A DNA stretch of 64,000 nucleotides from positions 62,343-126,342 of the forward strand of contig JALNZK010000002.1 of assembly GCA_023229365.1 (NCBI GenBank), in the 5' to 3' direction. The DNA comes from Pseudomonadota bacterium. Its GTDB lineage: Bacteria > Myxococcota_A > Polyangia > JAAYKL01. The position numbers and the translations under genes were made by a program. Of this stretch, positions 17,135 to 64,000 are shown piece by piece. The notes under the pieces were generated by a model. It was not told the DNA's origin. It searched no databases and saw only the letters and a list, made by a program, of their open reading frames with translations. Within the stretch, counting starts at the first letter, position 1. Each line of letters opens with the position of its first letter.

Positions 17135-17839
17135 TCAGCCCTGCAATGCAATACCAAACTTCTCTCGCATCAACAGCTTTGCTTTTTGAAGCAATTGATG
17201 GATATACGGACTTGATACCCCCAATTGCTTGGCAATCTCTTTCAGTGTTTTTCTTTCAATATAATGTTCGTGAAGAATTTGTTTTGCTCTTGTTGTAAAA
17301 AATGTATCGCCAGAATGCATGGTGAACAATTCATCTACCAAGTCTGCGTTTGAAGACCGTGGATCAACAATTTGCATTTCAGTGAAGTCTACCAACTCTT
17401 CATGATATTTTATTTTTCTTTGTTTATATCCATCAAGAATGGCATTTCGCATACAGCGAATAGCATAACTAGACCATGTGCATTCATGTTGCTGGGCTAA
17501 GTCTGGTGTCCAGCTTTCCACGGCTCTCCACAAGCCCATCAAAGCATCGGAATATTCTTCGCTATTTTCTACATCTTCATTAGACTTGAGAAAAGTTAAA
17601 GCCGAAGAGCGAGCCAGCTTCAAATTGGCCTCGACGGTTGGCTTGACGAACCTTAGCTCTTGTGTGCTTTGGTCGTCTTGCAGTCCCGATGTAGAAATAG
17701 GGGACGGAAGAGTGAACGATTTTTTCTTCAAAGCAATTGTCATAAAGCCCTCGCAGACCAAAGTGTTTTTGCACTTCGGACCAACTTGCTTACACGACAA
17801 GCACTTCGGACCAACCTGCGTTGATGATTTAATAGACAT
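17135..17839 (-). CDS. sigma-70 family sigma factor (second copy)
   Basis: C-terminal region 4.2 helix-turn-helix (TLKEIAKQLGVSSPYIHQLLQKAKLLMREKF) and a region-2-like segment (ALMGLWRAVESW...YAIRCMRNAILDGYKQRK). Confidence 0.55.
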   Translation of the reverse strand: MSIKSSTQVGPKCLSCKQVGPKCKNTLVCEGFMTIALKKKSFTLPSPISTSGLQDDQSTQELRFVKPTVEANLKLARSSALTFLKSNEDVENSEEYSDALMGLWRAVESWTPDLAQQHECTWSSYAIRCMRNAILDGYKQRKIKYHEELVDFTEMQIVDPRSSNADLVDELFTMHSGDTFFTTRAKQILHEHYIERKTLKEIAKQLGVSSPYIHQLLQKAKLLMREKFGIALQG

Positions 17840-40303: not shown

Positions 40304-40825
40304 TTATTTCTTCATGGGTTCAATAATACAACTCACCCCTTTTCCCTCTAATCGGGGAGTGCTCAGGGGTTTCCCACAAGAAACCAAAGAATCAATCATT
40401 TTCTGCATAAGGCTAAAACCCAGGTCTTTGTGAGCATTTTCTGCACCTTTGAATCTTACCATAAGTTGAACCCTATTTCCAGCCTCAAGGAATCTTTGTG
40501 CAGAATTTATCTTCACATCAAGATCATGAGTGGCTATAGAAGGCCGCAAACGTATTTCTTTAAGTTGCTGAGCCTTTGTTTGCGACTTACTCTTCTTTTC
40601 TTTAATGCTTTGCTCATAGCGAAATTTGCCATAATCCATTATTTTGCAAACTGGTGGTCGAGCATTTGGAGCCACTTCTACAAGGTCCAAACCTTCTCTC
40701 ACCGCAATTTCTAATGCCTGAGAAGTAGGCATTGTGCCCAATTTTTCTTCGCCTAAGATAACCATTACTGGCGAGAATCTGATTTGTCGATTAACACGAC
40801 AGAACTTTTGCTGATCTTTTTGCAT
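40304..40825 (-). CDS. infC: translation initiation factor IF-3
   Basis: Readily alignable with bacterial IF3: VMVILGEEKLG / LDLVEVAPNARPPVCKIMDYGKFRYE / KEIRLRPSIATHDLDVK / MVRFKGAENAH. Confidence 0.85.
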   Translation of the reverse strand: MQKDQQKFCRVNRQIRFSPVMVILGEEKLGTMPTSQALEIAVREGLDLVEVAPNARPPVCKIMDYGKFRYEQSIKEKKSKSQTKAQQLKEIRLRPSIATHDLDVKINSAQRFLEAGNRVQLMVRFKGAENAHKDLGFSLMQKMIDSLVSCGKPLSTPRLEGKGVSCIIEPMKK

Positions 40826-40828
40826 AAA

Positions 40829-42433
40829 CTATTTGCTTGTCTTTATACCCTTTCTCATTCTTTGTAAAACAGGCGACACATCATCACTATCAATTTTTAC
40901 ATTGATAACACACACAGACTCATTCACAAGGGCTGCACTCATAACAGAGTGTAGCGTTTGTTCATCTTCTACTAAAGCTCCCATACCTCCAGAAATTACA
41001 TCCACCATTTTTTCATAGTCCCATTCATGAATATCATAAAAAGGACCAGTAATTGAATTGCTTGCATAACCACCATTGTTTAACACACATACTATGGGGT
41101 TCAAACGACGAGCAACAATTGTGCTTAGTTCACTACAAGACATTTGAAAAGCCGCATCTCCCAAAATAACTATTGGACGCATCTTGGGAACGGCGGTTTG
41201 TAATCCTAGAGCGGCTGGTAGAGCGAAACCCATGCTTGGATAATATGCTGTTGCAAAGAATCCATGTTGATGGGTAATTAAATCACTTGCACCGAATAAT
41301 GAATCCCCCACATCGGATACAATAATAGAATTGGCATTCAAAATACTATTTATTTTTTCAAAAAACCTCGCCACAGTAATTTTAACACCACTGCGTGGTC
41401 GGAACTCTTTGTTGATTGGGGCTGCAATGACTGTGGCTAAGCCCTCCCGGCGAATTGAGGCTTTAAATAAAGCCCGGATAAAATCTTCAAAACCAACCTT
41501 ATCTGCATAGAAATGATTTTTAATACACAGTTCTGAAGAACACGTAACTGTGTGTTTATTAGCGGGCAAATTCTGGCAAGAAGATACGCCTAAAACCAAC
41601 AAACAATCAGATGTATCAATTGTTTCCTGAACTTTTGGATTGCTTCCTGCTCCTGCATAAACCCCAATCGCCAAGGGATGACTTTCATCAATTAGAGATT
41701 TGCTTAAAAGCGTGGTAACTACCGGAATGTTATATTTCTCGGCAAACTTCAAAAGAAGGGCACCCAAGCCATGACGATCTAATTGAATTCCGCCCAAAAT
41801 AACGGGCTTTTTAGCTTCATTCAACCAGTCTACCACTTCTGCCAACGCTTCTTCTAAAATCTCTTTATTACTTTCGGGAGCAGAGGGTGTGCCCTGTTTG
41901 TAAACATCATATACCAAAGTCTTATCAGCAATATCTTCTGCCAATTCAATGAATACTGGTTGTTTGTGATATTTTAATTTTTCCAACACAGAATCTATTT
42001 GATAGCCAGCAGTGCTAACATTATTCAATGTGGTGGAGGCACAGGTCAAATATTGAAACACTTTATTGTGATAGCTCTCCTGGCATTGGCCCTGTGATTT
42101 AGCCCCAGAAATAACAATAACAGGAGAATGCTCTGCTTTTGCACAAGCTATGGCATTTGCTATTTTCAAAGCTGACATTTGTGATACACAAACACATCCA
42201 ACACCACGAATACGAGCATAAGCATCGGCGGCAAACGCCGCATTTATTTCTTGTGTAGTATGAACTACTTCAACGTCTGATTTGGACAATTTTTTGAAAA
42301 AATTAGTAATATGGTCTCCAGGCAAGCCAAACACATGTTTTACGCCCGCATTTTCCATTCTTTCTACTAAAAAGTCTGACACACTCGACATGAAATATTC
42401 CTTACAACAAGATTTCTGAAGTTGGACTATCAA
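40829..42433 (-). CDS. thiamine-pyrophosphate-dependent enzyme (acetolactate synthase / pyruvate decarboxylase family)
   Basis: N-terminal TPP-pyrimidine-binding domain (GVKHVFGLPGDHITNFF) and the C-terminal GDAAFQM TPP-binding motif. Confidence 0.65.
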   Translation of the reverse strand: MIVQLQKSCCKEYFMSSVSDFLVERMENAGVKHVFGLPGDHITNFFKKLSKSDVEVVHTTQEINAAFAADAYARIRGVGCVCVSQMSALKIANAIACAKAEHSPVIVISGAKSQGQCQESYHNKVFQYLTCASTTLNNVSTAGYQIDSVLEKLKYHKQPVFIELAEDIADKTLVYDVYKQGTPSAPESNKEILEEALAEVVDWLNEAKKPVILGGIQLDRHGLGALLLKFAEKYNIPVVTTLLSKSLIDESHPLAIGVYAGAGSNPKVQETIDTSDCLLVLGVSSCQNLPANKHTVTCSSELCIKNHFYADKVGFEDFIRALFKASIRREGLATVIAAPINKEFRPRSGVKITVARFFEKINSILNANSIIVSDVGDSLFGASDLITHQHGFFATAYYPSMGFALPAALGLQTAVPKMRPIVILGDAAFQMSCSELSTIVARRLNPIVCVLNNGGYASNSITGPFYDIHEWDYEKMVDVISGGMGALVEDEQTLHSVMSAALVNESVCVINVKIDSDDVSPVLQRMRKGIKTSK

Positions 42434-45283: not shown

Positions 45284-45601
45284 TCAAGGGGATTTGTCGT
45301 ACCCTTGCTCTATATTCTTGAATATCGGATAGCCAGGGCAATTATCCCCCAAAGCTACTCCCTGAACATGGGGGTCAATACCTGTTATTTTGCAGTTTTC
45401 TAAAAATTCGTTTACCGTCTCATCCATGCGTTTTTTTGCGACTTTTTTGTGTTTTATGCAATACCACTGCCATGCCAATGGGTCTTCTTGTAAATATCGG
45501 CATTGTCGATGATCTCCCACAAACATTAAACAAATATCTTGCAACTGTTTTTGACTCAACATAATGTTTTCCTTACATCCAAATGTGTTGTTCTTCTCCA
45601 A
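45284..45601 (-). CDS. hypothetical protein
   Basis: 105 aa ORF. Confidence 0.35.
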   Translation of the reverse strand: MEKNNTFGCKENIMLSQKQLQDICLMFVGDHRQCRYLQEDPLAWQWYCIKHKKVAKKRMDETVNEFLENCKITGIDPHVQGVALGDNCPGYPIFKNIEQGYDKSP

Positions 45602-46106
45602 TGTCAGATATCAGCACTCCCTCACCGTGTGAAATTTCATGCTGATGGGCGACACACAAAATACCATCCTCTTCAGCAGACAATACCATATCTACCGCAT
45701 CTATTCTGATTTTTCCGTCCACATACAGTTGTTGGCCTTCCACTCGGATTTTTTTAAACCGATCTACCTTAAACCAACGAGACGATCCATCAGGATTTGT
45801 GAGAGATAAGCACCCCTCAAAAGATGATACCTTTTCATCTTCTATGGGCGTATATTTGCAGTTTAAATAGTAGCCAAATGGCATCTCTGCCGATTTTCTG
45901 ACAACGTACATATTCCAAGGCAACCCCACCTGTACCGCATGAAGACCAATTCCTTTGCGTAATTTGCACAAAATTTCTAATGCAGCAAATATCTTATACA
46001 ATTCCACGGGGGATTTATCAGCAGAGCCAGCTTTGGGAATTTGGTCAACTGGAATTATTTTTGGGATAGTTTGGTCGTTATCGCATCGCTCTTTTGATAC
46101 AGCCAT
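45573..46106 (-). CDS. def: peptide deformylase
   Basis: GIGLHAVQVG (motif 1), EGCLS (motif 2) and QHEISHGEG (HExxH, motif 3). Confidence 0.8.
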   Translation of the reverse strand: MAVSKERCDNDQTIPKIIPVDQIPKAGSADKSPVELYKIFAALEILCKLRKGIGLHAVQVGLPWNMYVVRKSAEMPFGYYLNCKYTPIEDEKVSSFEGCLSLTNPDGSSRWFKVDRFKKIRVEGQQLYVDGKIRIDAVDMVLSAEEDGILCVAHQHEISHGEGVLISDIGEEQHIWM

Positions 46107-46325: not shown

Positions 46326-46550
46326 TTATACTGTTTTTGGTCTATTTGCTTTTATGCGTTTCATTTGGGCCGCTTTTTCTTTTCGCCTACGGCGTTCTCC
46401 CTTGCTTTCAAAATACTGTTTTGATTTCCACAAGGTCATCACACCAGAATCCGTTGTTTTTTTTCTAAACTTACCCAACAAATTCCTAAAGTTTTCTTCG
46501 GGCGACTTTCCATGTTCCACCCGCAAAATCGCTCTACAATTCACTGCCAT
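46326..46550 (-). CDS. rpsU: 30S ribosomal protein S21
   Basis: 74 aa basic protein with the S21-like pattern (FRNLLGKFRKK...YFESKGERRRRKEKAAQMKR). A GAGGAG Shine-Dalgarno lies upstream. Confidence 0.65.
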   Translation of the reverse strand: MAVNCRAILRVEHGKSPEENFRNLLGKFRKKTTDSGVMTLWKSKQYFESKGERRRRKEKAAQMKRIKANRPKTV

Positions 46551-51520: not shown

Positions 51521-52624
51521 ATGATATTTGCTCCATTATCTCCGCAATATATTCGCAATTATGAACATTTGACACATTACCAAACAGTGGCTCTCCGTTA
51601 CCTAAAAAAAAAGGCCGGAACATCAACAAACAATGTTGTTTTACATACCTCTGGCACAACCACTGGTTGTGCAAAAATGTACAAATATTCTGTGCCTGAA
51701 TTTGTAAATATTGAAAAATATCATTTTAATAAAATTTGTTACCTAAACAACCTAAATCCCAGGCTACGCATTGCATGGATGGTGTCAACAGCCAATTCAC
51801 AGTCTTTAAGCATTGATGGTCCATCCACTATTGCATCTCTAAACAACAATGTTTATACAATTTCAATCCCTTACAATGCCAATAAACAACAGTGGGAAGA
51901 AGCGTATGACATAACTGCCCAAATATGTCCAGATTTGGTCTATACGACACCATCTACTTTTATGGCGTCTTATTTTGCCACAGAAAACAAAACACCACTT
52001 AACTGTGTGGTTATGTTTAGCTGTGAGACCTTGTTTGACGACACTCGTGATAAATCACTCAAAATATACACATCTGTTATAGATAAAATGAGAGCGTGGG
52101 ATACGGGGCTAAGCTTTATAGAATGCAGGTACGGAACAAAACATATTGATGACGAATTATGTCTTGTTGAACAAAATAACTACAACGAAATTACAAGCAC
52201 AGATTTTTTCAATTACAGCCAACCATACGCCTCTTGTAAAACCGATGATCTGGGCGTAATACAAACAAAGAGTTGCCAATGCGGCATTTATGGCAGGGTC
52301 TTTACAGAATTTACAGGAAAGTCTATACAATGTCTTTGGGATAATAACAAAACGCCTTGTGACCCACATACAATTACATCATTTATATCTTCATTTCTTA
52401 AATCAAAAAATCAAACACCTGTGCCGTATATGATTCGACAAAACAAAAAAGGAATAATCACCTTATTTATAGATCAGCAAAATGAGACATCTGTATTGAT
52501 AACAAAAGATGTGTTAAAAGGATTATTGCATCAACCAGTGCAAATAGAACAATATGAGAATGCTCCAAGAAACAGCGACAATAAATTACTCTTTATCTCC
52601 TCCGAGTTCTCCTCTGTGCAATAA
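51521..52624 (+). CDS. adenylate-forming enzyme (PaaK / F390-synthetase-like)
   Basis: VVLHTSGTTTGCAKM matches the AMP-binding SGTTGxPK motif. The 367 aa size fits the PaaK/CapK family. It is convergent with the radical-SAM maturase. Confidence 0.4.
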   Translation: MIFAPLSPQYIRNYEHLTHYQTVALRYLKKKAGTSTNNVVLHTSGTTTGCAKMYKYSVPEFVNIEKYHFNKICYLNNLNPRLRIAWMVSTANSQSLSIDGPSTIASLNNNVYTISIPYNANKQQWEEAYDITAQICPDLVYTTPSTFMASYFATENKTPLNCVVMFSCETLFDDTRDKSLKIYTSVIDKMRAWDTGLSFIECRYGTKHIDDELCLVEQNNYNEITSTDFFNYSQPYASCKTDDLGVIQTKSCQCGIYGRVFTEFTGKSIQCLWDNNKTPCDPHTITSFISSFLKSKNQTPVPYMIRQNKKGIITLFIDQQNETSVLITKDVLKGLLHQPVQIEQYENAPRNSDNKLLFISSEFSSVQ

Positions 52625-53917
52625 GAAATAATACAATCCTACAATTGCATTATTGATAGTCCATCGAATTGTTTGACAACCACCATAATGGCATTTTTCA
52701 CAATTGTATTTCTTGTGTCGTTCTACACAACCTCCACCACAACTAGGTAATATGGGGCAATGAACACACTCCGTATCTTCACAGGGACTAATTGCTATAG
52801 CACTGTCTTCCTCTGCCAGTTTCATGTCATATATGGTTCCAATGGCGTCTTCGTCGCTTATTCCACCAATACATTTGGTCACATTACCGTTTGGAGCTAT
52901 TGTGTAATAAAATCTCATATTCTTCATGCACCCCGGTAAGGTAGGAGCAAGAAACCTATATACTTCTGTCTTTCCTTTCAATGCTTGAATAGTATCATTG
53001 GTCACAATGGCAAAATCTTCTTGCTTCATGCCCAATTGATTTGGAAATCGAGTCATCGCTGGCGATGGATTAACAATACCACCGGCAGAATTTCTCTGAT
53101 TGAGACCTTTGTTTAATATATCATCTAAAAATTGCTTGTATTGTTCAGAGTTTGAGTAATCAAGATTACTTCGCACATCTATTTCCAATCCCTTAGAATA
53201 TCCAGCAATTAAGTTCTCCATAATAATGTCATAAGAAGATGGGTTGGCACCAATTAAAGGTCTTCTTGCGTCATGTATTTCACGCATCCCATCAATAGTA
53301 ATTTGAACACTACGACAATTGATTGACAGCAATCGATCTATCATTTCGTTGTCTAATAATGTGCCGTTAGTAATAATATTGTTTGAGAATTTCACCCCTC
53401 TATTTTTGCAAACATCTTTAATTTTTTTGGCAAGATCACATACTATATTTGGGCACAACAACGGCTCGCCGCCATACCAAGTTATAGAAAAATTTATTGT
53501 AGGGGTGGAAGAAATACAATGGTCAATAAATCGCACAAGCTGATCTTGTACATCGGATGACATGTCGGTAGCCATGCAATATTCTTTGCACTCTTTTTCA
53601 TAACAATAAAAACAAGCTGCATTGCAGCGACTAGTCACAACAATGACAAATTTCTTCTCTTGATTGTTGTTAAGATGATCTACATCAGTTTGTCGAAAAG
53701 TTGCAAACTCATCCTCATCAACAGGCACTAAAAATTTGTGTTTGCGAAGCTTTCTTTTGAACTTACTTAAACATAATGTGCTGTCGGCTATTTTTTGAAA
53801 ATCCTTTAATCGATCATTCAATTTTATCAATGTGCCAGACACTTGGTTGTACAATAACCAAACATCTTCATGCTGCACCAATATGTTGTATTTAGAAAGT
53901 TTATACCTTTTAAACAT
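52586..53917 (-). CDS. radical SAM/SPASM peptide-maturase-like enzyme
   Basis: CNAACFYC (Cx3Cx2C) follows a roughly 95 aa N-terminal extension that looks like an RRE. The C-terminal SPASM region carries extra cluster cysteines (CEDTECVHCPILPSCGGGC...CEKCHYGGC). Confidence 0.75.
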   Translation of the reverse strand: MFKRYKLSKYNILVQHEDVWLLYNQVSGTLIKLNDRLKDFQKIADSTLCLSKFKRKLRKHKFLVPVDEDEFATFRQTDVDHLNNNQEKKFVIVVTSRCNAACFYCYEKECKEYCMATDMSSDVQDQLVRFIDHCISSTPTINFSITWYGGEPLLCPNIVCDLAKKIKDVCKNRGVKFSNNIITNGTLLDNEMIDRLLSINCRSVQITIDGMREIHDARRPLIGANPSSYDIIMENLIAGYSKGLEIDVRSNLDYSNSEQYKQFLDDILNKGLNQRNSAGGIVNPSPAMTRFPNQLGMKQEDFAIVTNDTIQALKGKTEVYRFLAPTLPGCMKNMRFYYTIAPNGNVTKCIGGISDEDAIGTIYDMKLAEEDSAIAISPCEDTECVHCPILPSCGGGCVERHKKYNCEKCHYGGCQTIRWTINNAIVGLYYFLLHRGELGGDKE

Positions 53918-53929
53918 CTTATCCCTTTA

Positions 53930-54133
53930 TCAAGCTACCATATTGCTACAACAACCACTACAACCACAAACGCTACTAAAATCTGCTAATACAGTCTGAC
54001 AAGCGTGGGGAGCATCTGTTCGAACAAATACTTCACACTCATCAAAGGAAAACAATCCATTAAACAAAATACGAAACAACTTGGGATACCATTTTCGTTG
54101 TTGAGTGCAGGATTTTTCACTTGTTGCTAACAT
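53930..54133 (-). CDS. Cys-rich small peptide, candidate RiPP precursor
   Basis: 67 aa with a strong AAGGAGG Shine-Dalgarno. Its stop lies 13 nt upstream of the radical SAM gene. The C-terminus is cysteine-dense (SSVCGCSGCCSNMVA). Confidence 0.45.
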   Translation of the reverse strand: MLATSEKSCTQQRKWYPKLFRILFNGLFSFDECEVFVRTDAPHACQTVLADFSSVCGCSGCCSNMVA

Positions 54134-54162: not shown

Positions 54163-56781
54163 CTAGTCTATAATAGTAAAATCTTCCTTGATTTTATCTA
54201 TTACATCTTGTTTGACTATGGCACTTTCCGGCCAACGCAAAACATTCAAACGACCATCTTGGCTTTTTTCCTTAGGCACCATTTCTTTCCTAAGCTCTCT
54301 GGGGAAACTTTCAAATGTGTAATCTTTCCAATCCCCCATAGGCTTTTTAAGCCTCATTTGTAATAAATTGCCCCACTCGCATGTCGGCTCCCACCAAGCA
54401 ATTTCTTCCTCAAATCTTTCAAAATCATCTTTCCAAATAGTAACAGTTTCTGCTCTTCCATTGCCGTCCACAACTTTGACCTTGTATCCTTTCTTAGACT
54501 TCATAATTCGAGGCTTCTCTATTATCTGCACCTCCACCGGCTTAATGGCATGATCGCCCTGTGCAATTGCTATATCGAACTCCTCAAAGGTTCTTCCTTT
54601 ATAATCAGGAGATTGCGTCAACACATAATCCCAAGGAAAACCATAATATTTGTTTTCGGCAATAGACAAGTGATGTGATAATAAAACCTGCATTTCGTGA
54701 TCTATTTTTCCCGATGGATTCCAATTATCCATTGTGATAACGGTATCGAGTGCTACCTTTTTCTCATTGTTGGCTTTAGATTTGTTATATTGATTGATGG
54801 CTGTAAAAACATCTTCGGCCATGCCGTCCAAACACATAGCACTATGCTTTTCAATAAATTCCTTTTTCTTCAGGTCTTTAAACTGAGCACACCAATCGCC
54901 ATCTATTATTTTCTCATATTCTGATTGTACTAAGGATATAATTTCATCTAGACGATCTTGTTGAGAAGTAATATATCTCTTATCTCGATCTTTGCGTGAT
55001 TTGCTTTTGCAACGATAGAATTCAGCAAATTCATACAAAACCATCGGTTCATCAGAAAAAACCCGTAAAGCAATCAGTGGCTTCAAAACATCAGCATAAG
55101 TGCCAAATCGTTCCATAAAATCTACAAAAGAACTATAGGGCTGTCCTGCCACGATTTTTTCAGCAACCTCATCACCAACACCCTTAATGTCCGCAAACCC
55201 TAAATATATTTCATTGTCTATAATTTCAAAATGAACCTTCGACTTATTGATATCAATACGATTGATCGGCACCCCAAATCTTTGGGCTTCTAATCTGTAT
55301 TCTTTAATCTTGTCAGCATTTTTTTCACAACTCAAAATAGCTGCAAAGAACTCTAAAGGATAATGAGCTTTCAAATACAACAGCATTGCAGAAACAAACG
55401 AATATGAAGTAGCATGACTTAAATTGAAAGCATATCCCGAAAACTTTGCTATACTCTCAAAAAATTCATTAGCTTCTTGCTCAGAATAATCCAATCTTTG
55501 TTGGCATTGTTCCAAAAATTGAACTTTGGCTTTTTGGAAAACCTCGCCTTTTTTCTTGGAAATAGCCTTCACAATTTTATAACATTGAGGCAATGGAAAA
55601 CCCCCAATAACATTGAAGATTTTCATGATCTGTTCTTGGTAACACATCACCCCATATGTTTTTTCCAAAATAGGCTTTAACAATGGATGCAACTCGTATG
55701 GCTCGCCCTTTTTTCGCTTACAATAGGTGGTGTGGAGTTGAGAGCCCATAGGACCAGGACGATATAAACTAGTGAATGCCACTAGATCATCAAATGAAGT
55801 CACACCACCCTTTTTTGCCAAATCCCTAATGCCGGGAGAATCAAATTGGAAAATGCACTTTAATTTTGCTTCGTTTGCCAAAGCAATAGCATCAGGATCA
55901 TTTTGGTACTTCTCTGTGTCCGACCAATCATCCTGTGCCTCTAAATTACACATCCTGTCGATACCGTATCGCTCACGAATCAATTTCAAGCACTTAGCTA
56001 TTTGCACTAAGTTTGTAATAACCAATACATCGACTTTCACCAATCCTACAGGGGCCAAGTCTTGAGCATGCAGTCCTTCAGTCCATGCTGAAAGCGGATT
56101 GCCTTGCTTGTCCACAACCAATGGAACAAAATCAGCCAAGGGCATGCTAGAAATAATCAAACCACCAGCATGTTTGCCCATTCCCCTTACCCTGCCATAC
56201 AATCGCTTGGCAGCATCATATACCTCTGGATATTGCTCGCAATAAGCAGCCAATTCCTTGTTTAGCTCCAAAGCTTTTTCCCACGTAATGGGTTTATTTT
56301 CATCATCTTTATCTTCAATCTGGGTGGTAACCGTGTTGACTTCATCATGACTCAAGCCATAAACTCTGGCCATATCCTGTAAAGCAGATTTGATGCCATA
56401 AGTGGCATAATTACCAATATTACAAACATATTCCGCCCCAAAGGTTTGGGGAGCCCAGACATTTTTTAACCACTGTTGAATTTCAGGCAAGAAATCTGAA
56501 TCTATGTCGGGGAACTCGGCAATAAACGTAAACTTTGGCGGTTGGCTGATATCAAATTCATCGGCTAGTCCTAAAAGATGGACCACCAACATATTGTTTT
56601 CATTTTTGGCAAACTTACATTTTCTTTCGTACAAATCCACTAAATAATAGTGCTCATCTTGCCAGTCGATATGTCTAAACTCCAATTTCAGACGATCTGC
56701 ATATTGAGCGTTTGAACATAGTCCTAAGCTCTCTATTTTTTGCTGGCACAACAACTGTAGCTCTTTTTTATAATCTCTCAT
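54163..56781 (-). CDS. dnaE: DNA polymerase III alpha subunit, lacking N-terminal PHP domain
   Basis: Pol III alpha palm and fingers signatures (GMGKHAGGLIISSMPLADFVPL, GLVKVDVLVI, FDSPGIRDL, LYRPGPM). At 872 aa it has no PHP-type N-terminal region. Confidence 0.8.
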   Translation of the reverse strand: MRDYKKELQLLCQQKIESLGLCSNAQYADRLKLEFRHIDWQDEHYYLVDLYERKCKFAKNENNMLVVHLLGLADEFDISQPPKFTFIAEFPDIDSDFLPEIQQWLKNVWAPQTFGAEYVCNIGNYATYGIKSALQDMARVYGLSHDEVNTVTTQIEDKDDENKPITWEKALELNKELAAYCEQYPEVYDAAKRLYGRVRGMGKHAGGLIISSMPLADFVPLVVDKQGNPLSAWTEGLHAQDLAPVGLVKVDVLVITNLVQIAKCLKLIRERYGIDRMCNLEAQDDWSDTEKYQNDPDAIALANEAKLKCIFQFDSPGIRDLAKKGGVTSFDDLVAFTSLYRPGPMGSQLHTTYCKRKKGEPYELHPLLKPILEKTYGVMCYQEQIMKIFNVIGGFPLPQCYKIVKAISKKKGEVFQKAKVQFLEQCQQRLDYSEQEANEFFESIAKFSGYAFNLSHATSYSFVSAMLLYLKAHYPLEFFAAILSCEKNADKIKEYRLEAQRFGVPINRIDINKSKVHFEIIDNEIYLGFADIKGVGDEVAEKIVAGQPYSSFVDFMERFGTYADVLKPLIALRVFSDEPMVLYEFAEFYRCKSKSRKDRDKRYITSQQDRLDEIISLVQSEYEKIIDGDWCAQFKDLKKKEFIEKHSAMCLDGMAEDVFTAINQYNKSKANNEKKVALDTVITMDNWNPSGKIDHEMQVLLSHHLSIAENKYYGFPWDYVLTQSPDYKGRTFEEFDIAIAQGDHAIKPVEVQIIEKPRIMKSKKGYKVKVVDGNGRAETVTIWKDDFERFEEEIAWWEPTCEWGNLLQMRLKKPMGDWKDYTFESFPRELRKEMVPKEKSQDGRLNVLRWPESAIVKQDVIDKIKEDFTIID

Positions 56782-56844
56782 AATTCTACTATCACTATAT
56801 CAGTTTGCTTGCATCAAATCAACAGATAATCACTAATTTAAATT

Positions 56845-57987
56845 ATGAAAAACCTATCTTTTTATGTCTGCCAAACTGTCAATGAGAGTGGGGAAAAAGT
56901 CTATTTTAACACCCTCACAAGGCAACAACTGCCCATTTCTGCGACCTTTGACGAGTTGGAGTCCAATTTGTTTTTATCGGGACAAGAAAGAGAGTCCTTG
57001 TTGAAATTGTTGATAATTCATGACCCCCCAAAGTTTCTAAACTTTAACATAGCACCAACATTGGAATGTAACTTACGATGCACACACTGCAACTTCTCGC
57101 ATCTTTTAGAAGCAAAGCAACAAAAACCATTAAATGTTGATAAAATTTGTGATTTTATAATACGATCTAATGTCAAAGATATCTGCATATTTTTTTATGG
57201 TGGAGAAAACCTACTGGAAGAAGAAAAATGCCATGAAGTTATAGACAAGATCAAATCTCATGCAAACATTTTACACATAGGCATGGTCTCTAATCTAACG
57301 ATTGATCTAAATGAAAGAAGATTATCTTTAATTGAAAAATTAAGCCAACTAAGCATTAGTTTAGATGGTGGTAATGATTTGTTGAACGATGCACAAAGAA
57401 TACCACTCACAGGTAATTGGAGTCCATTTGAAAAAACAACCAATAATTTGAAAATATTAATAACCAAAGGACTGAGGCACAAAATCAATTTGAAAGCTTC
57501 TTTTGGCGATGCATCCAATACACCAGAACTACGAAAAGAATATTATCTCTTTGCTCTTCAGTTTGGATTTAAACCTGAACAAATAAACATAGGGCTTATC
57601 GGACCACATTCCGAGTGCAGGAAAACCACCAAATCTTTTGCTGATATATTGTTAAAACCTATATTCACGCCTACATGGTGTTGTAAATACAGACATGAAG
57701 TATTATTAACCGACTATACAGAAAATATATTTAGCGATTATTATACATATACAAAGATAGGAAATTTATCAGATAGTTTGAGTACAATCATAGAGAGAAG
57801 AAATGACCTAATTTTAAAAACCATGCCCTTGCTAAATGACACAAAATGCATGAAGTGTCAAGCAGCAGGGTATTGCTGGGGAAGCTGTGCGATGTTGGAT
57901 TTTGTTGGGGGAAAAAGCAATTTTTGCGATCCAGTAGCTCTTCAACACCAAATACAAAAAATGGCCAATGACAACAAACTATGCTAA
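56845..57987 (+). CDS. radical SAM/SPASM peptide-maturase-like enzyme (second copy)
   Basis: CNLRCTHC (Cx3Cx2C) follows a roughly 70 aa N-terminal extension. The C-terminal SPASM motif is CMKCQAAGYCWGSC. Confidence 0.7.
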   Translation: MKNLSFYVCQTVNESGEKVYFNTLTRQQLPISATFDELESNLFLSGQERESLLKLLIIHDPPKFLNFNIAPTLECNLRCTHCNFSHLLEAKQQKPLNVDKICDFIIRSNVKDICIFFYGGENLLEEEKCHEVIDKIKSHANILHIGMVSNLTIDLNERRLSLIEKLSQLSISLDGGNDLLNDAQRIPLTGNWSPFEKTTNNLKILITKGLRHKINLKASFGDASNTPELRKEYYLFALQFGFKPEQINIGLIGPHSECRKTTKSFADILLKPIFTPTWCCKYRHEVLLTDYTENIFSDYYTYTKIGNLSDSLSTIIERRNDLILKTMPLLNDTKCMKCQAAGYCWGSCAMLDFVGGKSNFCDPVALQHQIQKMANDNKLC

Positions 57988-57996
57988 GGAAAAAAA

Positions 57997-58170
57997 ATGA
58001 TGACAACACTAACAGATGCAGAAAAAATCACTTTTGAGTGTCCAGATGCAGAAAAACTACAACAATTGCTGGACGAGTGCTTGTGTATGGAAATTAATGC
58101 GGGCACCAATTCAAATTCTACTGCTGGCTATGTTTGTGCTTGCCCCGTATATACAATTTCAATAACCTAA
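57997..58170 (+). CDS. Cys-rich small peptide (57 aa), candidate RiPP precursor; absent from the supplied ORF track
   Basis: An AAGGA Shine-Dalgarno precedes ATGATG, 9 nt after the radical SAM stop. The peptide is MMTTLTDAEKITFECPDAEKLQQLLDECLCMEINAGTNSNSTAGYVCACPVYTISIT. Its stop overlaps the ATG of the next gene (TAATG). Confidence 0.4.
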   Translation: MMTTLTDAEKITFECPDAEKLQQLLDECLCMEINAGTNSNSTAGYVCACPVYTISIT

Positions 58171-59258
58171 TGAATCTTTTGCAATGTTATAATCAATATT
58201 ACAAAAACCCAACCCTTGAAAGTGCCAAACTTTTATGGCAAGAAATTCAGTCCTATAACTTTTGCGATTATGTCGATTTTGCTTCAGATGTAAAAGCTGC
58301 CCGTGAGGATTGTAAAAATTTTAGTTCAATTTCTCTAAGGACAAATGGCTCCACAAATATACCTCGGGAATATAAATTTGGTCCGTTTTTCGATTTTTGG
58401 ATCAATAGCATGGAGTCTGCAATCAAGCCAAGCATAGGGAAAACAATATACATTCAATCAATGTTTCCTTGCGGAGATAAAAAAAATGCTATTATGCGTG
58501 TTAAAGATAATTCTCTTATGGATTATGCTGGCATTTTTTATTGGGACCAAAACAATGCCCTATCTTTTTTGATAAATTTCCTTCATAGCGTAAAAGAGCC
58601 AATCACTATCAGCACCGTCTCTAATACACTACTTTTTCTATTAGAACAAAAAAGTTTCTTAGAGTTCTTAAAACAAGACAAAATACTTGCTATCCGTACT
58701 TTAGATTGGGAGCCTTTTTTCAAATCCAGCAAAATACCATCCTCGATCCACCTTAATAACAACATGGTTGATTGGTCAATCACATCTAACTTTTACACCT
58801 GCCCATTTCGCACATTGCATTTTTTTCCAACTTTTTCTGGAAACACAAGCTTAATCAATCTTGCAAATAATCAAATTGAATCTGATGATTTATTTGAAAT
58901 CAATCCGCAAGTCAGAGTGTGTAATTGTGGAAAGTCATATTTAAACTTCAAATTTATACCGCATGTCAACAATGCAATAAAAATAAACAATAAAATAATA
59001 TACGAACCAAGTTTTATAGAAAAATTAGATTCTTGCTATTTAAACCTTCAGTTTGTTCAAACAGGGCAAGAAACTATTGATATATTATATATTGGAAATA
59101 TATCACAACATGACAAAGATGCCATCAACACATTGTTTGAAGGTAGAACTAATTTTGTAAGAAACAAATATCTCGTAATTGGAAGAAAACTAATTTGCTT
59201 TTACCGCAATTCCAATAACATTCCTTACCAATCATATTCTGGCATCACAATTTTATAA
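58170..59258 (+). CDS. hypothetical protein (possible second PaaK-like enzyme, weak)
   Basis: Start reassigned to MNLLQCYN, which is translationally coupled to the peptide ORF. The listed upstream part overlaps the peptide in another frame. Confidence 0.4.
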   Translation: MNLLQCYNQYYKNPTLESAKLLWQEIQSYNFCDYVDFASDVKAAREDCKNFSSISLRTNGSTNIPREYKFGPFFDFWINSMESAIKPSIGKTIYIQSMFPCGDKKNAIMRVKDNSLMDYAGIFYWDQNNALSFLINFLHSVKEPITISTVSNTLLFLLEQKSFLEFLKQDKILAIRTLDWEPFFKSSKIPSSIHLNNNMVDWSITSNFYTCPFRTLHFFPTFSGNTSLINLANNQIESDDLFEINPQVRVCNCGKSYLNFKFIPHVNNAIKINNKIIYEPSFIEKLDSCYLNLQFVQTGQETIDILYIGNISQHDKDAINTLFEGRTNFVRNKYLVIGRKLICFYRNSNNIPYQSYSGITIL

Positions 59259-59892
59259 TCAACTTCTTTAATGATCCTATTTCCGTCTTCGACAAAGGCT
59301 TGGATTTCCTGCCCTCCCAATTGGTTGTTCTCACACCATGCTCAATATGCTGTATCACCAACTTTTGTAATGTTTTTTTAGAATCCCAGTAATCTGCAAA
59401 CACATCATCATACCATCCAGCAGTGTCCCAATCTTCTGGATAGTATTTTAGCCTCGTAGCATGAAACAACTGAAAAAACCCAAGTATACGCATGTTGTCA
59501 CCATCAATATACATTTGTTTGCCAGAAATATTGTCAATTTCATACCTTACCGCCCCATATAAAAACTCTTTATCTAAAGTCAATCCTTCGATTATTTCCC
59601 TAAAGTTATCTGGAAGAATGATATCTGCGTCTAAAGCAAGCATCCAATCTTTTTTATCCAAATAACTTATGGCATCATTTAGTCCCTTACCTTTGTTAAA
59701 TGCTGCACCGCCTTCATAAAATCGACTTGATTCAACACATTCTATTTGATGCTTTTTACACACACTCTTGGTTGCCACATCTTCTGTCGAAGTAATGATT
59801 ACCCATCTGTCAAAATGCTTTTTGTTTGAATATAAACACACATCCAAAAAATCACTATAACCCACGCAAGATGTAAAAACTTCTAAATACAT
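59245..59892 (-). CDS. DxD-motif nucleotide-sugar transferase-like protein (paralog A)
   Basis: LALDADIILP DxD motif. It is about 60% identical in amino-acid sequence to the adjacent gene. Confidence 0.4.
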   Translation of the reverse strand: MYLEVFTSCVGYSDFLDVCLYSNKKHFDRWVIITSTEDVATKSVCKKHQIECVESSRFYEGGAAFNKGKGLNDAISYLDKKDWMLALDADIILPDNFREIIEGLTLDKEFLYGAVRYEIDNISGKQMYIDGDNMRILGFFQLFHATRLKYYPEDWDTAGWYDDVFADYWDSKKTLQKLVIQHIEHGVRTTNWEGRKSKPLSKTEIGSLKKLIIKL

Positions 59893-59894
59893 AA

Positions 59895-60563
59895 TTAGGC
59901 GAATTTAATTACCGATTTGCTGAAAGTGCTAACATCGTTTTTGGATAATATTTTTGATCTTCTGCCACACCAATTTGTTGCAACAATCCCATGTGGCATA
60001 TGTTCGACTACTACATCTTCCAACATTCTATGTCTTCCGTTCCAATAAGACACAAATTCCAAATCATAATTTCCAGCATGGGGATAAGATTCTGGATAGA
60101 CCTTGGCCCTTTGCATAACATCAGAATGTCCATTAAACAATTGAAAATAACCCCAGGGCGAAATTACAGGAGTCACATCAGTCCAACATTGGCATGTATC
60201 CAAACTTTTCCTTGGAACTCCATATAAAAAATCATTATTCAGTTTTTTAGCACCAATCATTTCCCTAAAATCAGCAGGAAGAATAATATCAGCATCTAAG
60301 GCAAGAACCCAATCTTTCTTAAACAAATGATTTATAACATCGTTTAGTGCTTTTCCTTTATTAAATTTATCTCCATTATTATAAAATCTTCGAGACTCCA
60401 CACACTCAACACCACTTTTCTTGCATATGTTTTTTGTGTTTTCATCTTCTGAGCTTGTGACAACAACCCATCTGTCAAAGTGCTTTTTATTTGCACTTAT
60501 GCAAATGTTTAAGAAATCACCATAATTCACACATACTGTAAAAACTTCCAAATAATTAATCAT
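59895..60563 (-). CDS. DxD-motif nucleotide-sugar transferase-like protein (paralog B)
   Basis: It is a tandem duplicate of 59245..59892 (YLEVFT.CV.Y.DFL..C...NKKHFDRWV). Confidence 0.4.
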   Translation of the reverse strand: MINYLEVFTVCVNYGDFLNICISANKKHFDRWVVVTSSEDENTKNICKKSGVECVESRRFYNNGDKFNKGKALNDVINHLFKKDWVLALDADIILPADFREMIGAKKLNNDFLYGVPRKSLDTCQCWTDVTPVISPWGYFQLFNGHSDVMQRAKVYPESYPHAGNYDLEFVSYWNGRHRMLEDVVVEHMPHGIVATNWCGRRSKILSKNDVSTFSKSVIKFA

Positions 60564-61623
60564 ATGCCCTTAGTGTGAAATCAATAAAACTACTGTTAAT
60601 GTTTTCTATTCTATCGCCTTTTATTTTATATCCTATTTGATTGGTTCCCTCATAATGAGTCATATCTTCATTTAATTTTAATTCGTCCCGCCAAATACCT
60701 TTGTCTGTTGGCCATCTAAGACTGAGATTTAAACCATCAATGGACCAAGTTTCTGGACCTTGTGGAGTGTTTAATGTTCCATTTGGATAAGCCACAAATC
60801 GTCTGTGTTTTCGACCATTAACATAGTGTTCCCAAACTCCATCAAAAGAAAACTTGGGCATTCGCTCTTTAACCACGCCTTTTTTAAAAAATGGCTCCAA
60901 AACATCTTGCACAACATCTTCCACAACTATCGATAAATTTGCCTGTTTAAACCAATCTCTATAAGTCACTAGTGGCTGATTTGTTTTCTGAAAATTTCCT
61001 TCGAAACCATATCCCATTTCTTGCAACTCATCTTCTGTAAAGACTAAATGCACATAAGCCTTATTGATATGTTTGTATAAGTGTCCACCATGTCTTGATA
61101 AAAACGGATGACAACGAACAAAAATATCTGTATTTTTATTTGCTACCTCTCTTACTTTGGTTAGGATGCCTACAGGATCAGTTGAATGATCTAGAACATC
61201 ATAAAGCATGATAAAATCAAATGGCGACATTGCTTTAATTTTATCAAAATTAGTGGTCAATAAATACTTACCCTCTTTTTCCCACTCAAAAGAAGAACTC
61301 TCCACAATGTCGTACCCTGCTGCTTGTGATCCCAACTGAGAAGCCACAACAGCAACATGTCCTAAGCCACAACCAAAATCTAAGAACTTTTTGCCATCAA
61401 CCTCCCAATTAGAGAAATTAATGATTGAATCGGCACGTTCAAATAAATCATCTTCAGATTCCATGCATATTAGTTCTTGGGGCACCGCAACAGGCCAACT
61501 TTCACTATGTAACAAATCTTTTAATTGTAGAATTTTAAACTGGGCATCCCAAACTTTACATTTTGTCAAAAATGTTCTGATTTCATCCAAAGATTGCAGC
61601 ACTTGCTCTACTGTTTCTATCAT
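60556..61623 (-). CDS. class I SAM-dependent methyltransferase
   Basis: LDFGCGLGHVAVVASQLG is SAM-binding motif I, and an acidic motif II (YDIVE) follows. Confidence 0.65.
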   Translation of the reverse strand: MIETVEQVLQSLDEIRTFLTKCKVWDAQFKILQLKDLLHSESWPVAVPQELICMESEDDLFERADSIINFSNWEVDGKKFLDFGCGLGHVAVVASQLGSQAAGYDIVESSSFEWEKEGKYLLTTNFDKIKAMSPFDFIMLYDVLDHSTDPVGILTKVREVANKNTDIFVRCHPFLSRHGGHLYKHINKAYVHLVFTEDELQEMGYGFEGNFQKTNQPLVTYRDWFKQANLSIVVEDVVQDVLEPFFKKGVVKERMPKFSFDGVWEHYVNGRKHRRFVAYPNGTLNTPQGPETWSIDGLNLSLRWPTDKGIWRDELKLNEDMTHYEGTNQIGYKIKGDRIENINSSFIDFTLRAYD

Positions 61624-61633
61624 AATTACACCA

Positions 61634-62428
61634 TTAAAAAAGCGGCTTATTATATCTACTAATTCTGTTACTTTTTATCAAATTGTAATAATTCCACCCT
61701 CTGTGAAATTGATTACGATTAGATTCTACAAAATGATATCCATCAAAATTATTCATGTTAAAATTTTTGTAACTACAACACACCTTACTATCTAAGTGTA
61801 TTTCATTGGGATGTAGCTCAAGAATTTTGTCTTTCGATATGGTAATTTGATCCTTATGCAAAAAAACCAATGCTAATAATCCTTGCTCGTCCGCAGAGTT
61901 TAAATTTTCAAGCTCGCCATACTTACGCCACACTCTACATATATCTTTTTGAAAATCATGACCAGGAACCAATCCAATCAAACCAGAGTTGTATTTTTTT
62001 GTCTTTGGTAGATAACAACTATATCGTCCAAAATATCGAGTTGGCTCATCCAAACACAAACACCTTTTGCCGCCAAGAAAATCGTCTATTTCTGGCAAAT
62101 GTTTGCAAATTACAACATCATTATCCATTATAATTTCATATGACTCTATCCTTATTCTAGCTGGGCAAAGTTTCCATAGCGTTCCGAGATTTTCCTGTGA
62201 GAGAGGGCAATCACAAATCTTCTGCTCATATAATGTGAGTAAATGAATTTTGGCAACTTCTCTAAGCCTATCAAGCTGTGCTTCAGTCAAATTATTGTAA
62301 CACACAAACCAATCAAAATTATCTCTGCCCAATGCGTTTATTGTTTGAATGACCGATTCCTCAAAAATATGAAACCCAACCCTTGAGGGCCTTCCAATTG
62401 TCCATCGAAATATCGGCTTTAAAATCAT
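61634..62428 (-). CDS. hypothetical protein, possible glycosyltransferase
   Basis: The N-terminus KPIFRWTIG resembles the DXD sugar-transferase family start. This is a weak call. Confidence 0.3.
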   Translation of the reverse strand: MILKPIFRWTIGRPSRVGFHIFEESVIQTINALGRDNFDWFVCYNNLTEAQLDRLREVAKIHLLTLYEQKICDCPLSQENLGTLWKLCPARIRIESYEIIMDNDVVICKHLPEIDDFLGGKRCLCLDEPTRYFGRYSCYLPKTKKYNSGLIGLVPGHDFQKDICRVWRKYGELENLNSADEQGLLALVFLHKDQITISKDKILELHPNEIHLDSKVCCSYKNFNMNNFDGYHFVESNRNQFHRGWNYYNLIKSNRISRYNKPLF

Positions 62429-62429
62429 A

Positions 62430-63242
62430 TCAGTTAAATTTCACTTCATTTTTATCTACCACATTAGATAAAAAATCATCCAATGTTTTGTGTTTTTCAG
62501 GGTGTAAATGACCGGCATATACCCTGATTTTTGGATCAATGGGCAGTTTCCACTTGCTACAATAATAATAGTAACTCCACACATTGCTTAAGTCATAAAG
62601 TCTTTGGTCGGAAAGATTGTGTTTTTGATGCAACTCCACACAATCAATAGGTAAAAATCTTCCGCCACAAACAATAGCTTTTCTCCAAAAATCATAGTCC
62701 TTATACCCCCATGCCTCAAAATCAGCACTAAATCCCCCATATTCCCAATAAGTTTTTTTTGCAAACAATACGCATCCAGCAAACGGGTTTTTATGCCCCA
62801 CAATATCTACATTTTCTACCCTATGATCCGGCACCAATAAAGACTCATGCTTATATGGATTATCTCTCACCATTCGTATAGAAGAAATATCTACATCTTC
62901 TTTAAAAGAAAACAGATATTTGGGAAAGATAAACAATCCATCTTCTATCAATGATGCATTGTTTAAAAAGTTTGTAGGAAGAATTCTATCGCTGTCCAAG
63001 TACCATATGTGATTGCCACTACTGGCCTCAATGGCTGCATTAAGGGCTTCGCCAAGCCGATAAAACTTTCCTCTTCTCTCTATCTCTAAAACTCTCCACC
63101 CCTCTGGATGTATGTCTGTTTGTCCATCCACACATAAAATTTTTTCACATGTGGCAACATAATCCATATCATTCAGACAATCAATCGTATTAATAAGCTG
63201 TCTGTGACGATCTGTAGAGTATAAAACAACAATACTGAGCAT
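62430..63242 (-). CDS. hypothetical protein, possible glycosyltransferase
   Basis: The N-terminus LSIVVLYSTDR is a GT2-like start. This is a weak call. Confidence 0.3.
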   Translation of the reverse strand: MLSIVVLYSTDRHRQLINTIDCLNDMDYVATCEKILCVDGQTDIHPEGWRVLEIERRGKFYRLGEALNAAIEASSGNHIWYLDSDRILPTNFLNNASLIEDGLFIFPKYLFSFKEDVDISSIRMVRDNPYKHESLLVPDHRVENVDIVGHKNPFAGCVLFAKKTYWEYGGFSADFEAWGYKDYDFWRKAIVCGGRFLPIDCVELHQKHNLSDQRLYDLSNVWSYYYYCSKWKLPIDPKIRVYAGHLHPEKHKTLDDFLSNVVDKNEVKFN

Positions 63243-63245
63243 ACT

Positions 63246-63938
63246 TTATTTAGCAAGAAATTCATCAGGTTTTGTTATTTTGTCGCCAGGACATGGACAA
63301 ACCTCTTCTGTTCCGAATTTTCTTGCATAATTCTTGTTTAATCCGTCACAAATTAAAGACAATCTACAATCCATGCACTTGGGGGAATATGTGTAGCTTT
63401 CTCCCGTAAAAACTTTGGCCAAATGTTCATACGCACCTGAGTCTTCCATGAAATTATACAAACCTCTTGACACCTTTGGTGCAGGTGCGGAAGAGTTTAC
63501 ATCCGACCAAGATTTATAATCCCACTCGTAGTTGTCATATGGTAATTGTCGATAATTATAACATTTGTTTTCATGCCCATATAGAAAACAAAATGGCATA
63601 TACCTTACGGCAGTATGCATGCTGTGTATATCGCAATAATTTAATGCCTCATGTAAACAATCTTTCATTTCAGAAAAACGAGCTATTAAATCAAATGTTT
63701 CATCATGATCTCTGAATAAATTACAGGAAATATAATTGATTGTGCGACACCCCTTTGTGTATACAAATTCTGCTATGTTTTTTAAAGCTTTAAAATTAGT
63801 TTTATTGATAGTGACATTTGTGCGAAATGGTATGCTCAAATGAACCAAATTATCTAACGCCTTCTCAACCCTGGAAAAACTGCCATTCACACCAACGACA
63901 TCATCATAAGCAACCCCCAAATTATGAACAGAACACAA
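63246..63938 (-). CDS. SPASM/twitch-like C-terminal domain protein (possible split radical SAM)
   Basis: It has a TTG start, CMDCRLSLIC (Cx2Cx5C) and CPCPG. An upstream minus-strand gene ends at 63948 and runs off the window edge. Confidence 0.3.
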   Translation of the reverse strand: MCSVHNLGVAYDDVVGVNGSFSRVEKALDNLVHLSIPFRTNVTINKTNFKALKNIAEFVYTKGCRTINYISCNLFRDHDETFDLIARFSEMKDCLHEALNYCDIHSMHTAVRYMPFCFLYGHENKCYNYRQLPYDNYEWDYKSWSDVNSSAPAPKVSRGLYNFMEDSGAYEHLAKVFTGESYTYSPKCMDCRLSLICDGLNKNYARKFGTEEVCPCPGDKITKPDEFLAK

Positions 63939-64000
63939 AAAATCCTCTATTCCAGCATCCTTAAATTGTTTGGCAACATCCAGATCGGCAAGAGCTTGCA

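Follow-up and report, generated by a model that had tools for sequence, protein, structure and literature searches.

We analysed a 64,000-nt stretch of DNA (hereafter, the window) from a contig deposited under a Pseudomonadota bacterium (assembly GCA_023229365.1, contig JALNZK010000002.1, positions 62,343 to 126,342). The open reading frame (ORF) at 54163..56781, on the minus strand, probably encodes the C-terminal subunit of a two-gene DnaE-type replicase, which belongs to a large clade of huge phages and in which the active site would be completed in trans. The 872-residue product, named here the C-piece, is a DNA polymerase III (Pol III) alpha protein of the DnaE type that has neither a PHP domain nor the Gly-Ser (GS) loop of the palm. 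In relatives, these two elements are found on the product of a second gene, named here the N-piece. Below, we describe the C-piece, the N-piece of the relatives and the fused forms of the two, and we weigh the explanations that can be given for a polymerase gene of this kind.

The C-piece aligns with canonical polymerases from the catalytic DxD strand onward. Residues 89-549 pair with residues 398-855 of E. coli DnaE and, in a sequence search of the PDB, residues 89-562 pair with residues 460-928 of Taq Pol III alpha (expectation value E 2.5e-74). The NCBIfam profile NF004226 matches residues 90-560 with its positions 401-863 of 1146 (E 1.5e-110), so strong a signal that chance cannot account for it. 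In Pfam, the match to DNA_pol3_alpha (E 1.6e-27) covers only positions 100-259 of the 260 of the profile, and there is no match to PHP (PF02811). A previous sequence-only reading of this DNA held that the DnaE homologue begins with non-PHP sequence; this is borne out by the Pfam result and by residues 13-88, which correspond to the start of the palm. The DxD strand, PDIDSD, comprises residues 91-96 (56494..56511; this and all other segments of the C-piece are on the minus strand) and is equivalent to E. coli D401/D403. The third catalytic carboxylate, D251 (56029..56031), is equivalent to E. coli D555. P91, D92, D94 and D96, as well as K249 and D251, are invariant among 86 family sequences. 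The fingers domain consists of residues 258-428 (55498..56010; PF17657, DNA_pol3_finger, E 5.1e-39) and it is followed by a helix-hairpin-helix (HhH) DNA-binding module, residues 503-572 (55066..55275; PF14579, HHH_6, E 3.2e-14). An AlphaFold2 model of the C-piece, made with the 86 family sequences, has a mean predicted local distance difference test score (pLDDT) of 89.2 and a predicted template-modelling score (pTM) of 0.79. The best Foldseek matches of this model are the Pol III alpha structures of Taq, M. tuberculosis and E. coli (E 1.6e-32 to 1e-25 over about 850 columns). The model places β-strands at residues 746-823, and a predicted OB fold, residues ~741-850 (54232..54561), is present after the β-binding region. 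Sub-threshold Foldseek matches to the OB folds of RPA, SSB and LysRS, together with the alignment to full-length Taq alpha, point to the same fold. The C-piece ends soon after the OB fold, and a tau-binding C-terminal domain is therefore unlikely.

The first 88 residues of the C-piece (56518..56781), hereafter the head, can be described as a degenerate copy of the N-terminal subdomain of the palm, with helices at residues 4-18, 25-41, 44-52 and 65-69. With BLAST and MAFFT, head residues 13-88 pair with residues 327-418 of Targaryen and with residues ~297-397 of E. coli, which form the start of the palm. The head has an 11-residue gap that falls exactly at VGPGRGSGAGS of fused DnaE proteins, and NENN, residues 60-63 (56593..56604), takes the place of the triphosphate-binding loop GPGRGSxxGS. 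GPGRGS corresponds to the motif hG[GS], with which Pol-beta-fold nucleotidyltransferases bind the triphosphate of the incoming nucleotide. The part of the enzyme that contains the GS loop has been named the nucleoside triphosphate (NTP)-binding subdomain (Iyer et al. 2021, PMC7824862). A NENN-like motif is seen in 100 of 118 C-pieces, and GxGRGS in none of the 120 listed C-pieces. The identity of head residues 41-88 to the family consensus is 0.68, compared with 0.67-0.79 across the catalytic core. The PHP domain, which the sequence-only reading named as the missing part, is indeed gone, but the break lies inside the palm, before the DxD strand, and not at the boundary between PHP and palm; the GS NTP-binding loop is therefore also gone from the C-piece. 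A divergent PHP domain in the N-terminal 150 residues was considered and rejected, since residues 13-88 match the start of the palm and the DxD strand follows from residue 89 onward. Judged by these alignments, the C-piece is without PHP domain and GS loop, yet it keeps what looks like a remodelled copy of the helices around the loop.

The boundaries of the ORF, which begins with ATG, are well defined. There is an in-frame TGA 21 nt 5' of the ATG, and the intergenic spacer upstream (56782..56844, 63 nt) has stops in all frames. Across this spacer is a divergent radical S-adenosylmethionine (radical-SAM) gene, at 56845-57987 on the plus strand. These three observations rule out an N-terminal extension of the 872-residue ORF, and a hidden upstream exon or extension was rejected because of the stops and of the divergent gene only 63 nt away. 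The identical 872-residue protein is present on three contigs of differing source. Furthermore, a 100-kb ENA contig of independent origin agrees with the window at every position of the 11.5 kb compared (100% identity). The protein is an intact DnaE homologue without a PHP domain and not a simple truncation.

More than 100 clusters share the architecture of the C-piece, with identities of 44-69%, lengths of about 840-930 residues, no PHP domain, and contigs of up to 546 kb. A search of 1.84 billion proteins with only the first 100 residues gives at least 127 clusters (50% identity level), and the matches begin nearly always within the first ~10-20 residues of the matched protein. The protein of the window has the pattern of this family, a GS-less head from the N-terminal part of the palm followed by PDxDxD. 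The contigs carrying this architecture are mostly those of huge phages, of 200-550 kb. The nearest GenBank phage record to the C-piece is LR756511.1, from an uncultured 595-kb phage. The gene content of the window fits a huge phage: it includes an NAD-dependent ligase, two sigma factors, PhoH, dUTPase, dCMP deaminase, endonuclease VII/HNH, RtcB, IF3, S21 and a deformylase. The parent contig, of 340,072 bp, was deposited as 'MAG: Proteobacteria bacterium' (MAG, metagenome-assembled genome) and a 546-kb relative as 'Crenarchaeota archaeon'. Judging from their genes and from the relatives found in IMG/VR, both are mis-binned huge-phage genomes. Ordinary inteins (PF14890, PF05204), located away from the split junction, were seen in three C-pieces (P0012, P0015 and P0031, ~1,030-1,340 residues) and in three N-pieces (P0174, P0197 and P0238, 600-700 residues).

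The N-piece family comprises at least 120 clusters of proteins of 420-480 residues, all of those listed having PF02811 (PHP) and PF07733 (start of the palm). GxGRGS is present in 112 of the 120 listed N-pieces, and a DxD strand was found in none of these 120. The two pieces cover successive parts of the polymerase profiles. For NF004226, N-piece P0216 covers positions 25-398 and the C-piece of the window positions 401-863; for TIGR00594, the corresponding segments are 20-395 and 398-859. In its fold, the N-piece corresponds to the N-terminal 430-470 residues of DnaE proteins of solved structure. Conservation within the N-piece is highest in the block G.GRGS..G.L..YCL.ITDV.PI.HDLLFSRFLSP.RGG. 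After RGG, the N-piece continues for only ~25-35 residues, with a segment K-x-x-K-[LF]-[KR]-F that falls exactly on the strand PDVDVDF when aligned to the fused LR756511 protein and that carries Lys where the catalytic Asp would be. In the model of the N-piece, PHP and the start of the palm are predicted with confidence, while tail residues 407-440 have a pLDDT below 50, as expected for a segment that would be ordered only by its partner and was modelled alone. About 100 homologous residues are encoded in both genes and are degenerate in a reciprocal way; this does not correspond to a clean fission.

Both pieces occur in the same genomes and in a characteristic order. Eleven contig sizes, taken as the longest per cluster, are common to the C-piece and the N-piece lists (546492, 213526, 200059, 177432, 86215, 83366, 71775, 65111, 32895, 32515 and 19250). 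In relative P0109, on a 292-kb contig, a 448-residue PF02811+PF07733 gene precedes the C-piece by 4 kb on the same strand, and the three genes that separate the two are on the opposite strand. The spacing from N-piece to C-piece is 4 kb in locus L007 and 10.6 kb in the 546-kb relative. The order in this relative is N-piece, a 168-residue gene, a 339-residue gene and PspC (these two on the opposite strand), M14 peptidase, gyrB, gyrA, AAA, cpYpsA and C-piece. Among 80 IMG/VR loci retrieved by the N-piece profile, a C-piece is also present in 44. It is downstream on the same strand, 1.06-9.6 kb from the N-piece, in 40 of the 80; three others are fused single genes, and one has the C-piece on the opposite strand. 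In a further 14 of the 80, there is no C-piece in the 8.7-10.6 kb of downstream sequence available, and the gap must therefore be larger there. The remaining loci run off their contig.

Fused forms of the two pieces also exist, but they are rare. The LR756511 protein (L001:6786-10325) has 1179 residues and a PHP domain (E 1.1e-36), and three IMG/VR loci (L071, L077 and L093) have open frames of 1185-1328 residues. These fused forms carry GPGRGS and PD[AV]DVDF, and NENN is absent from them; a fused form therefore corresponds to an N-piece and a C-piece minus the redundant tail and head. The fused LR756511 protein is the closest full-length relative among GenBank phages. It has 42% identity to the C-piece of the window over residues 65-860 and the same C-terminal architecture, while the identity between its N-terminal third and the N-piece family is about 60%. 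However, it has PHP, GPGRGS and DxD on one chain and lacks the NENN head and the Lys tail. In quick neighbour-joining trees without bootstrap, made for both halves, the four fused forms are monophyletic beside one split lineage (a 177-kb genome), which has the split-specific characters. One possibility suggested by these trees is that recombination between the duplicated segments of the palm re-fused the two genes secondarily and gave rise to the fused forms.

In many N-piece genes the reading frame is interrupted near its 5' end. The interruption lies in the first PHP metal-binding motif, GFEHLHLH-(T/S)DFS.LDG, and affects about 40% of the genes (L007:4559-4660, L010:9890-10010 and the 5' ends of the N-pieces in L015-L092; 59 loci could be scored). 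Inserts of 5-8 nt that start with a stop codon, such as CAC-TAGTTTTC-AGC, CTT-TAG CTA-CAC and CTC-TAA CTT-GAT, were found in 15 of the 59 loci. Another 7 have inserts of 40-47 nt that fold into strong hairpins (folding free energies, dG, of -22 to -30 kcal/mol, z -3.8 to -7.8). Upstream of the interruption, the mini-ORF has changed synonymously, with its amino acids preserved, and interrupted N-pieces show no enrichment of an internal Met after LDGY (2/24 versus 10/35). These features make the interruptions candidates for programmed translational bypassing or hopping, for which T4 gene 60 is the comparison case; alternatively, they may be N-terminal truncations that inactivate PHP.

The anatomy of the pieces, their co-occurrence, the order of their genes in relatives and the fused forms are matters of observation, and the following mechanism could account for them. 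The C-piece would supply the three catalytic carboxylates, the thumb, the fingers, the HhH module, DNA binding and the OB fold. The N-piece, of about 440-480 residues, would supply the GPGRGS triphosphate-binding loop in trans, and its PHP domain would be a proofreading exonuclease where the nine metal ligands are intact. The two polypeptides would assemble into one enzyme; we infer both this physical association and the action of the GS loop at the active site of the C-piece. The system may have originated by a partial duplication followed by complementary degeneration, and the overlap of ~100 residues with opposite losses would have been left behind by a fission of this kind.

Several points weigh against this mechanism. 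No N-piece was found in the ~83 kb examined of the 340-kb contig. When compared with hhalign, head residues 1-48 match the start of the N-piece palm at the expected position with E 8e-4 and a probability of only 24%, so that the statistics for homology between the first half of the head and the palm are modest. Two copies of the palm N-subdomain would have to pack around one active site, for which a domain swap, a pseudo-dimer or a displacement of the head can be envisaged. Furthermore, with N-pieces interrupted at the PHP motif, an active proofreader is not guaranteed. We distinguish the two-gene replicase completed in trans, which we regard as probable, from a more complete scheme with an obligate heterodimer, a trans-assembled active site and reciprocal relics, in which the PHP subunit would be expressed in many members perhaps through programmed bypassing. 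The latter is tentative, and we would put it at somewhat less than an even chance.

A gene for the partner N-piece is very probably present in the genome from which the window derives. The sequence-only reading left it open whether PHP is encoded separately or absent, and it called for a search for a stand-alone PHP ORF. This search could be made on ~83 kb only, the window plus flanks reading 9.2 kb past its high end and ~10 kb past its low end, and no such ORF was found there. In the window, tblastn with the PHP domains of E. coli, Targaryen and LR756511 and with six N-pieces gave no PHP-like sequence (best E 0.13), and a hidden Markov model (HMM) of the N-piece family, run with --max, gave no N-piece (best E 0.088). 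The same HMM gave no match on the flanks (L004, L011, L012 and L013); positive controls for it scored E 1e-251 and 1e-264. An N-piece gene, if present, must therefore be over 16.4 kb away from the C-piece on its upstream side, or at some other place on the contig. Of the two alternatives, the separate upstream PHP gene of the relatives favours a split polymerase, while none is seen in the ~83 kb here; because of this, we can only infer that the gene is split rather than devoid of PHP in this genome. The far edge of the readable DNA has PspC and a large Lys/Pro-rich gene on the opposite strand, as beside the N-piece of the 546-kb relative. The anchor is weak in sequence, the 396-residue and 339-residue neighbours of PspC aligning at E 0.054 only. 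By synteny, the N-piece would be expected on the minus strand, beyond the PspC pair and past the end of the window. Compared with relatives, this genome has radical-SAM, methyltransferase and glycosyltransferase genes, ~7 kb in all, inserted between cpYpsA and the C-piece, which partly explains the larger gap.

The proposal that PHP is truly absent from the genome, and that the 872-residue protein works alone with no intrinsic proofreading or with an unrelated exonuclease, would agree with the empty ~83 kb and with a gap to any N-piece beyond the 1-10 kb typical of relatives. We consider it improbable. The protein has the GS-less head typical of its family, and in 14 of the 80 loci the C-piece is likewise missing from the 8.7-10.6 kb of downstream sequence available. 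The 546-kb relative has a gap of 10.6 kb, with the same PspC anchor next to its N-piece. Moreover, about 257 kb of the contig lie outside the ~83 kb covered, and neither a DnaQ-type exonuclease nor another polymerase was seen among the scanned window ORFs. An artefact, be it a truncated gene call, a frameshift, a pseudogene or a chimeric assembly, might be suspected in a metagenome assembly, but the chance of one is very slight given the identical protein on three contigs, the agreement with the ENA contig, the same start and architecture in 127 clusters, the invariant catalytic residues, and the upstream stops with a divergent gene adjoining.

The main rival explanation takes the C-piece for a self-sufficient polymerase, in which NENN or residues of the fingers replace the GS loop. 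The N-piece would then be an accessory proofreader that docks through its palm-like module, as epsilon does on E. coli alpha, and GPGRGS would have been kept for structure or docking. In favour of this, the palm, thumb and fingers core of the C-piece is complete and confidently modelled, the conserved head would fill the place that the N-terminal subdomain of the palm has canonically, and catalytic carboxylates are missing from the N-piece. Against it, GPGRGS is the best-conserved block of a protein that has no carboxylates, and the fused relatives pair a GS segment of the N-piece type with a DxD strand of the C-piece type. The GS motif is also near-universal in Pol-beta-fold nucleotidyltransferases. 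The conservation of GPGRGS and the make-up of the fused forms, as read from the alignments, argue against a self-sufficient C-piece, and we find this explanation unlikely. A split intein that joins the halves after translation, as in cyanobacterial DnaE or in the 'fractured genes' of marine phages, has precedents in DnaE genes (PMC3919608, PMC2677866), and some members of the family carry ordinary inteins (PF14890) elsewhere in the protein. Nevertheless, the short tail of the N-piece aligns to the DxD strand and the head of the C-piece aligns to the palm, with no C-intein ...HN/[CST] junction. Pfam gave no intein domain on the protein of the window, and the intervening DNA in relatives consists of 1-10 kb of unrelated genes and not of a single homing endonuclease. 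The split intein was rejected on these grounds, head and tail both being alignable to elements of the palm, and its probability is negligible.

The polymerase gene was described in the sequence-only reading as lying between peptide-modification cassettes, and this description holds, with genes like those of radical-SAM/SPASM maturases and small Cys-rich ORFs on both sides. The radical-SAM loci are at 52586-54133 (minus strand), 56845-58170 (plus strand) and, for the third, 63246-64000+ (minus strand). The 443-residue radical-SAM protein matches TIGR04463 (E 2.3e-57) and is CefB-like (E 3.7e-53), both matches being below curated cut-offs, and the 380-residue protein is PapB-like (E 1.2e-15). 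Small ORFs with a Cys-rich C-terminus adjoin the radical-SAM genes, one of 67 residues (...SSVCGCSGCCSNMVA) and one of 57 residues (...AGYVCACPVYTISIT). From their sequences, these look like pairs of precursor and maturase for ribosomally synthesized and post-translationally modified peptides, carried by a phage. Such cassettes are absent from the loci of the relatives. In the 546-kb relative, cpYpsA is directly upstream of the C-piece and the block corresponding to ~56845-64000 is missing (compared with L005:9300-10000). This block includes a methyltransferase gene at 60556-61623 and glycosyltransferase genes at 59895-60563 and 62430-63242. These ~7 kb seem to have been inserted into the replication module in this lineage specifically.

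Other genes of the window are of interest as well. Translation genes, all on the minus strand, encode IF3 (40304-40825), ribosomal protein S21 (46326-46550) and peptide deformylase (45573-46106). IF3 is full, with both domains (E 5e-28 and 3.5e-25), and S21 and peptide deformylase are syntenic with relatives. The region that contains the polymerase subunit also has genes for an NAD-dependent DNA ligase (17839-20037, minus strand; phrog_3869, E 1.4e-117) and for two sigma-70-family factors (17135-17839, minus strand, and 1619-2275, plus strand). A 534-residue thiamine-pyrophosphate (TPP) enzyme at 40829-42433 (minus strand), with all three TPP domains in an acetolactate-synthase-like architecture, is an unusual metabolic gene for a phage. 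The largest ORF of the window, 28840-32313 (minus strand), has a TTG start and 1157 residues, with no Pfam or PHROG match.

If the proposal is right, the two pieces provide a natural active site divided in trans, a system in which the roles of the GS loop and of PHP in catalysis, fidelity and folding can be separated. They would also be a model for viable intermediates in gene fission and would bear on the host-independent replisomes of huge phages. For annotation, such genes are now labelled 'DNA polymerase III alpha', 'PHP domain-containing protein' or 'hypothetical' in Proteobacteria or Crenarchaeota bins. The pair of N-piece and C-piece could serve as a marker of the huge-phage clade with the split replicase, which is large and essentially unstudied.

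Previously, PHP and a complete palm have been found on one chain in the bacterial replicases studied and in the viral C-family polymerases surveyed (PMC3919608, PMC3201878), and the PHP domain is conserved in viral C-family polymerases according to the survey (PMC3201878). Our literature search gave no account of huge phages whose full-size DnaE is split so that PHP is on one of the pieces and reciprocal relics are on both, which does not prove that the family is undescribed. Canonical DnaE proteins (E. coli, T. aquaticus and M. tuberculosis; 2HNH, 2HPI/3E0D, 5LEW/7PU7) share with the C-piece the palm with its three carboxylates, the thumb, the fingers, the HhH module and the OB fold, with E values of 1e-63 to 1e-74 in sequence and ~1e-32 in Foldseek. 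Unlike them, the C-piece has no PHP and no GS loop, has an extra degenerate palm-N head and ends after the OB fold.

The split-intein DnaE of cyanobacteria (Caspi 2003, as cited in PMC3919608) is the only split DnaE noted in a survey of bacteria (PMC3919608), and 'fractured' marine DnaE genes also use split inteins (Dassa 2009, PMC2677866). These systems likewise have two genes, but they rely on protein trans-splicing at other positions, whereas here the junction has no intein motifs and ~100 residues are duplicated. Intein-less fractured phage genes are also known, among them Aeh1 nrdA and the PolB gp43 of Aeromonas phage 25 (reviewed in PMC2677866). In these cases, a replication enzyme likewise works as two polypeptides after an insertion of foreign DNA; however, the break is a clean one made by a homing-endonuclease gene, while here the gap is variable, contains several genes and separates overlapping ends. 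The closest precedent comes from group 2.2 jumbo phages, in which a minimal Pol III alpha is split into an N-terminal, NTP-binding protein and a C-terminal protein that binds Mg2+ and template DNA (Iyer 2021, Viruses 13:63, PMC7824862). That enzyme is a bare catalytic core without PHP, and it occurs beside a family B polymerase (PMC7824862); among the scanned ORFs of the window, no family B polymerase was found. The functional boundary is the same in both systems, and at the level of the family the break described here falls between the GS helix and the DxD strand. In contrast to the minimal split enzyme, the pieces here are of full size, with PHP on one and thumb, fingers, HhH and OB fold on the other. 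Each piece also keeps a degenerate copy of the active-site element of the other, which sets this replicase apart from the split enzyme as described by Iyer 2021.

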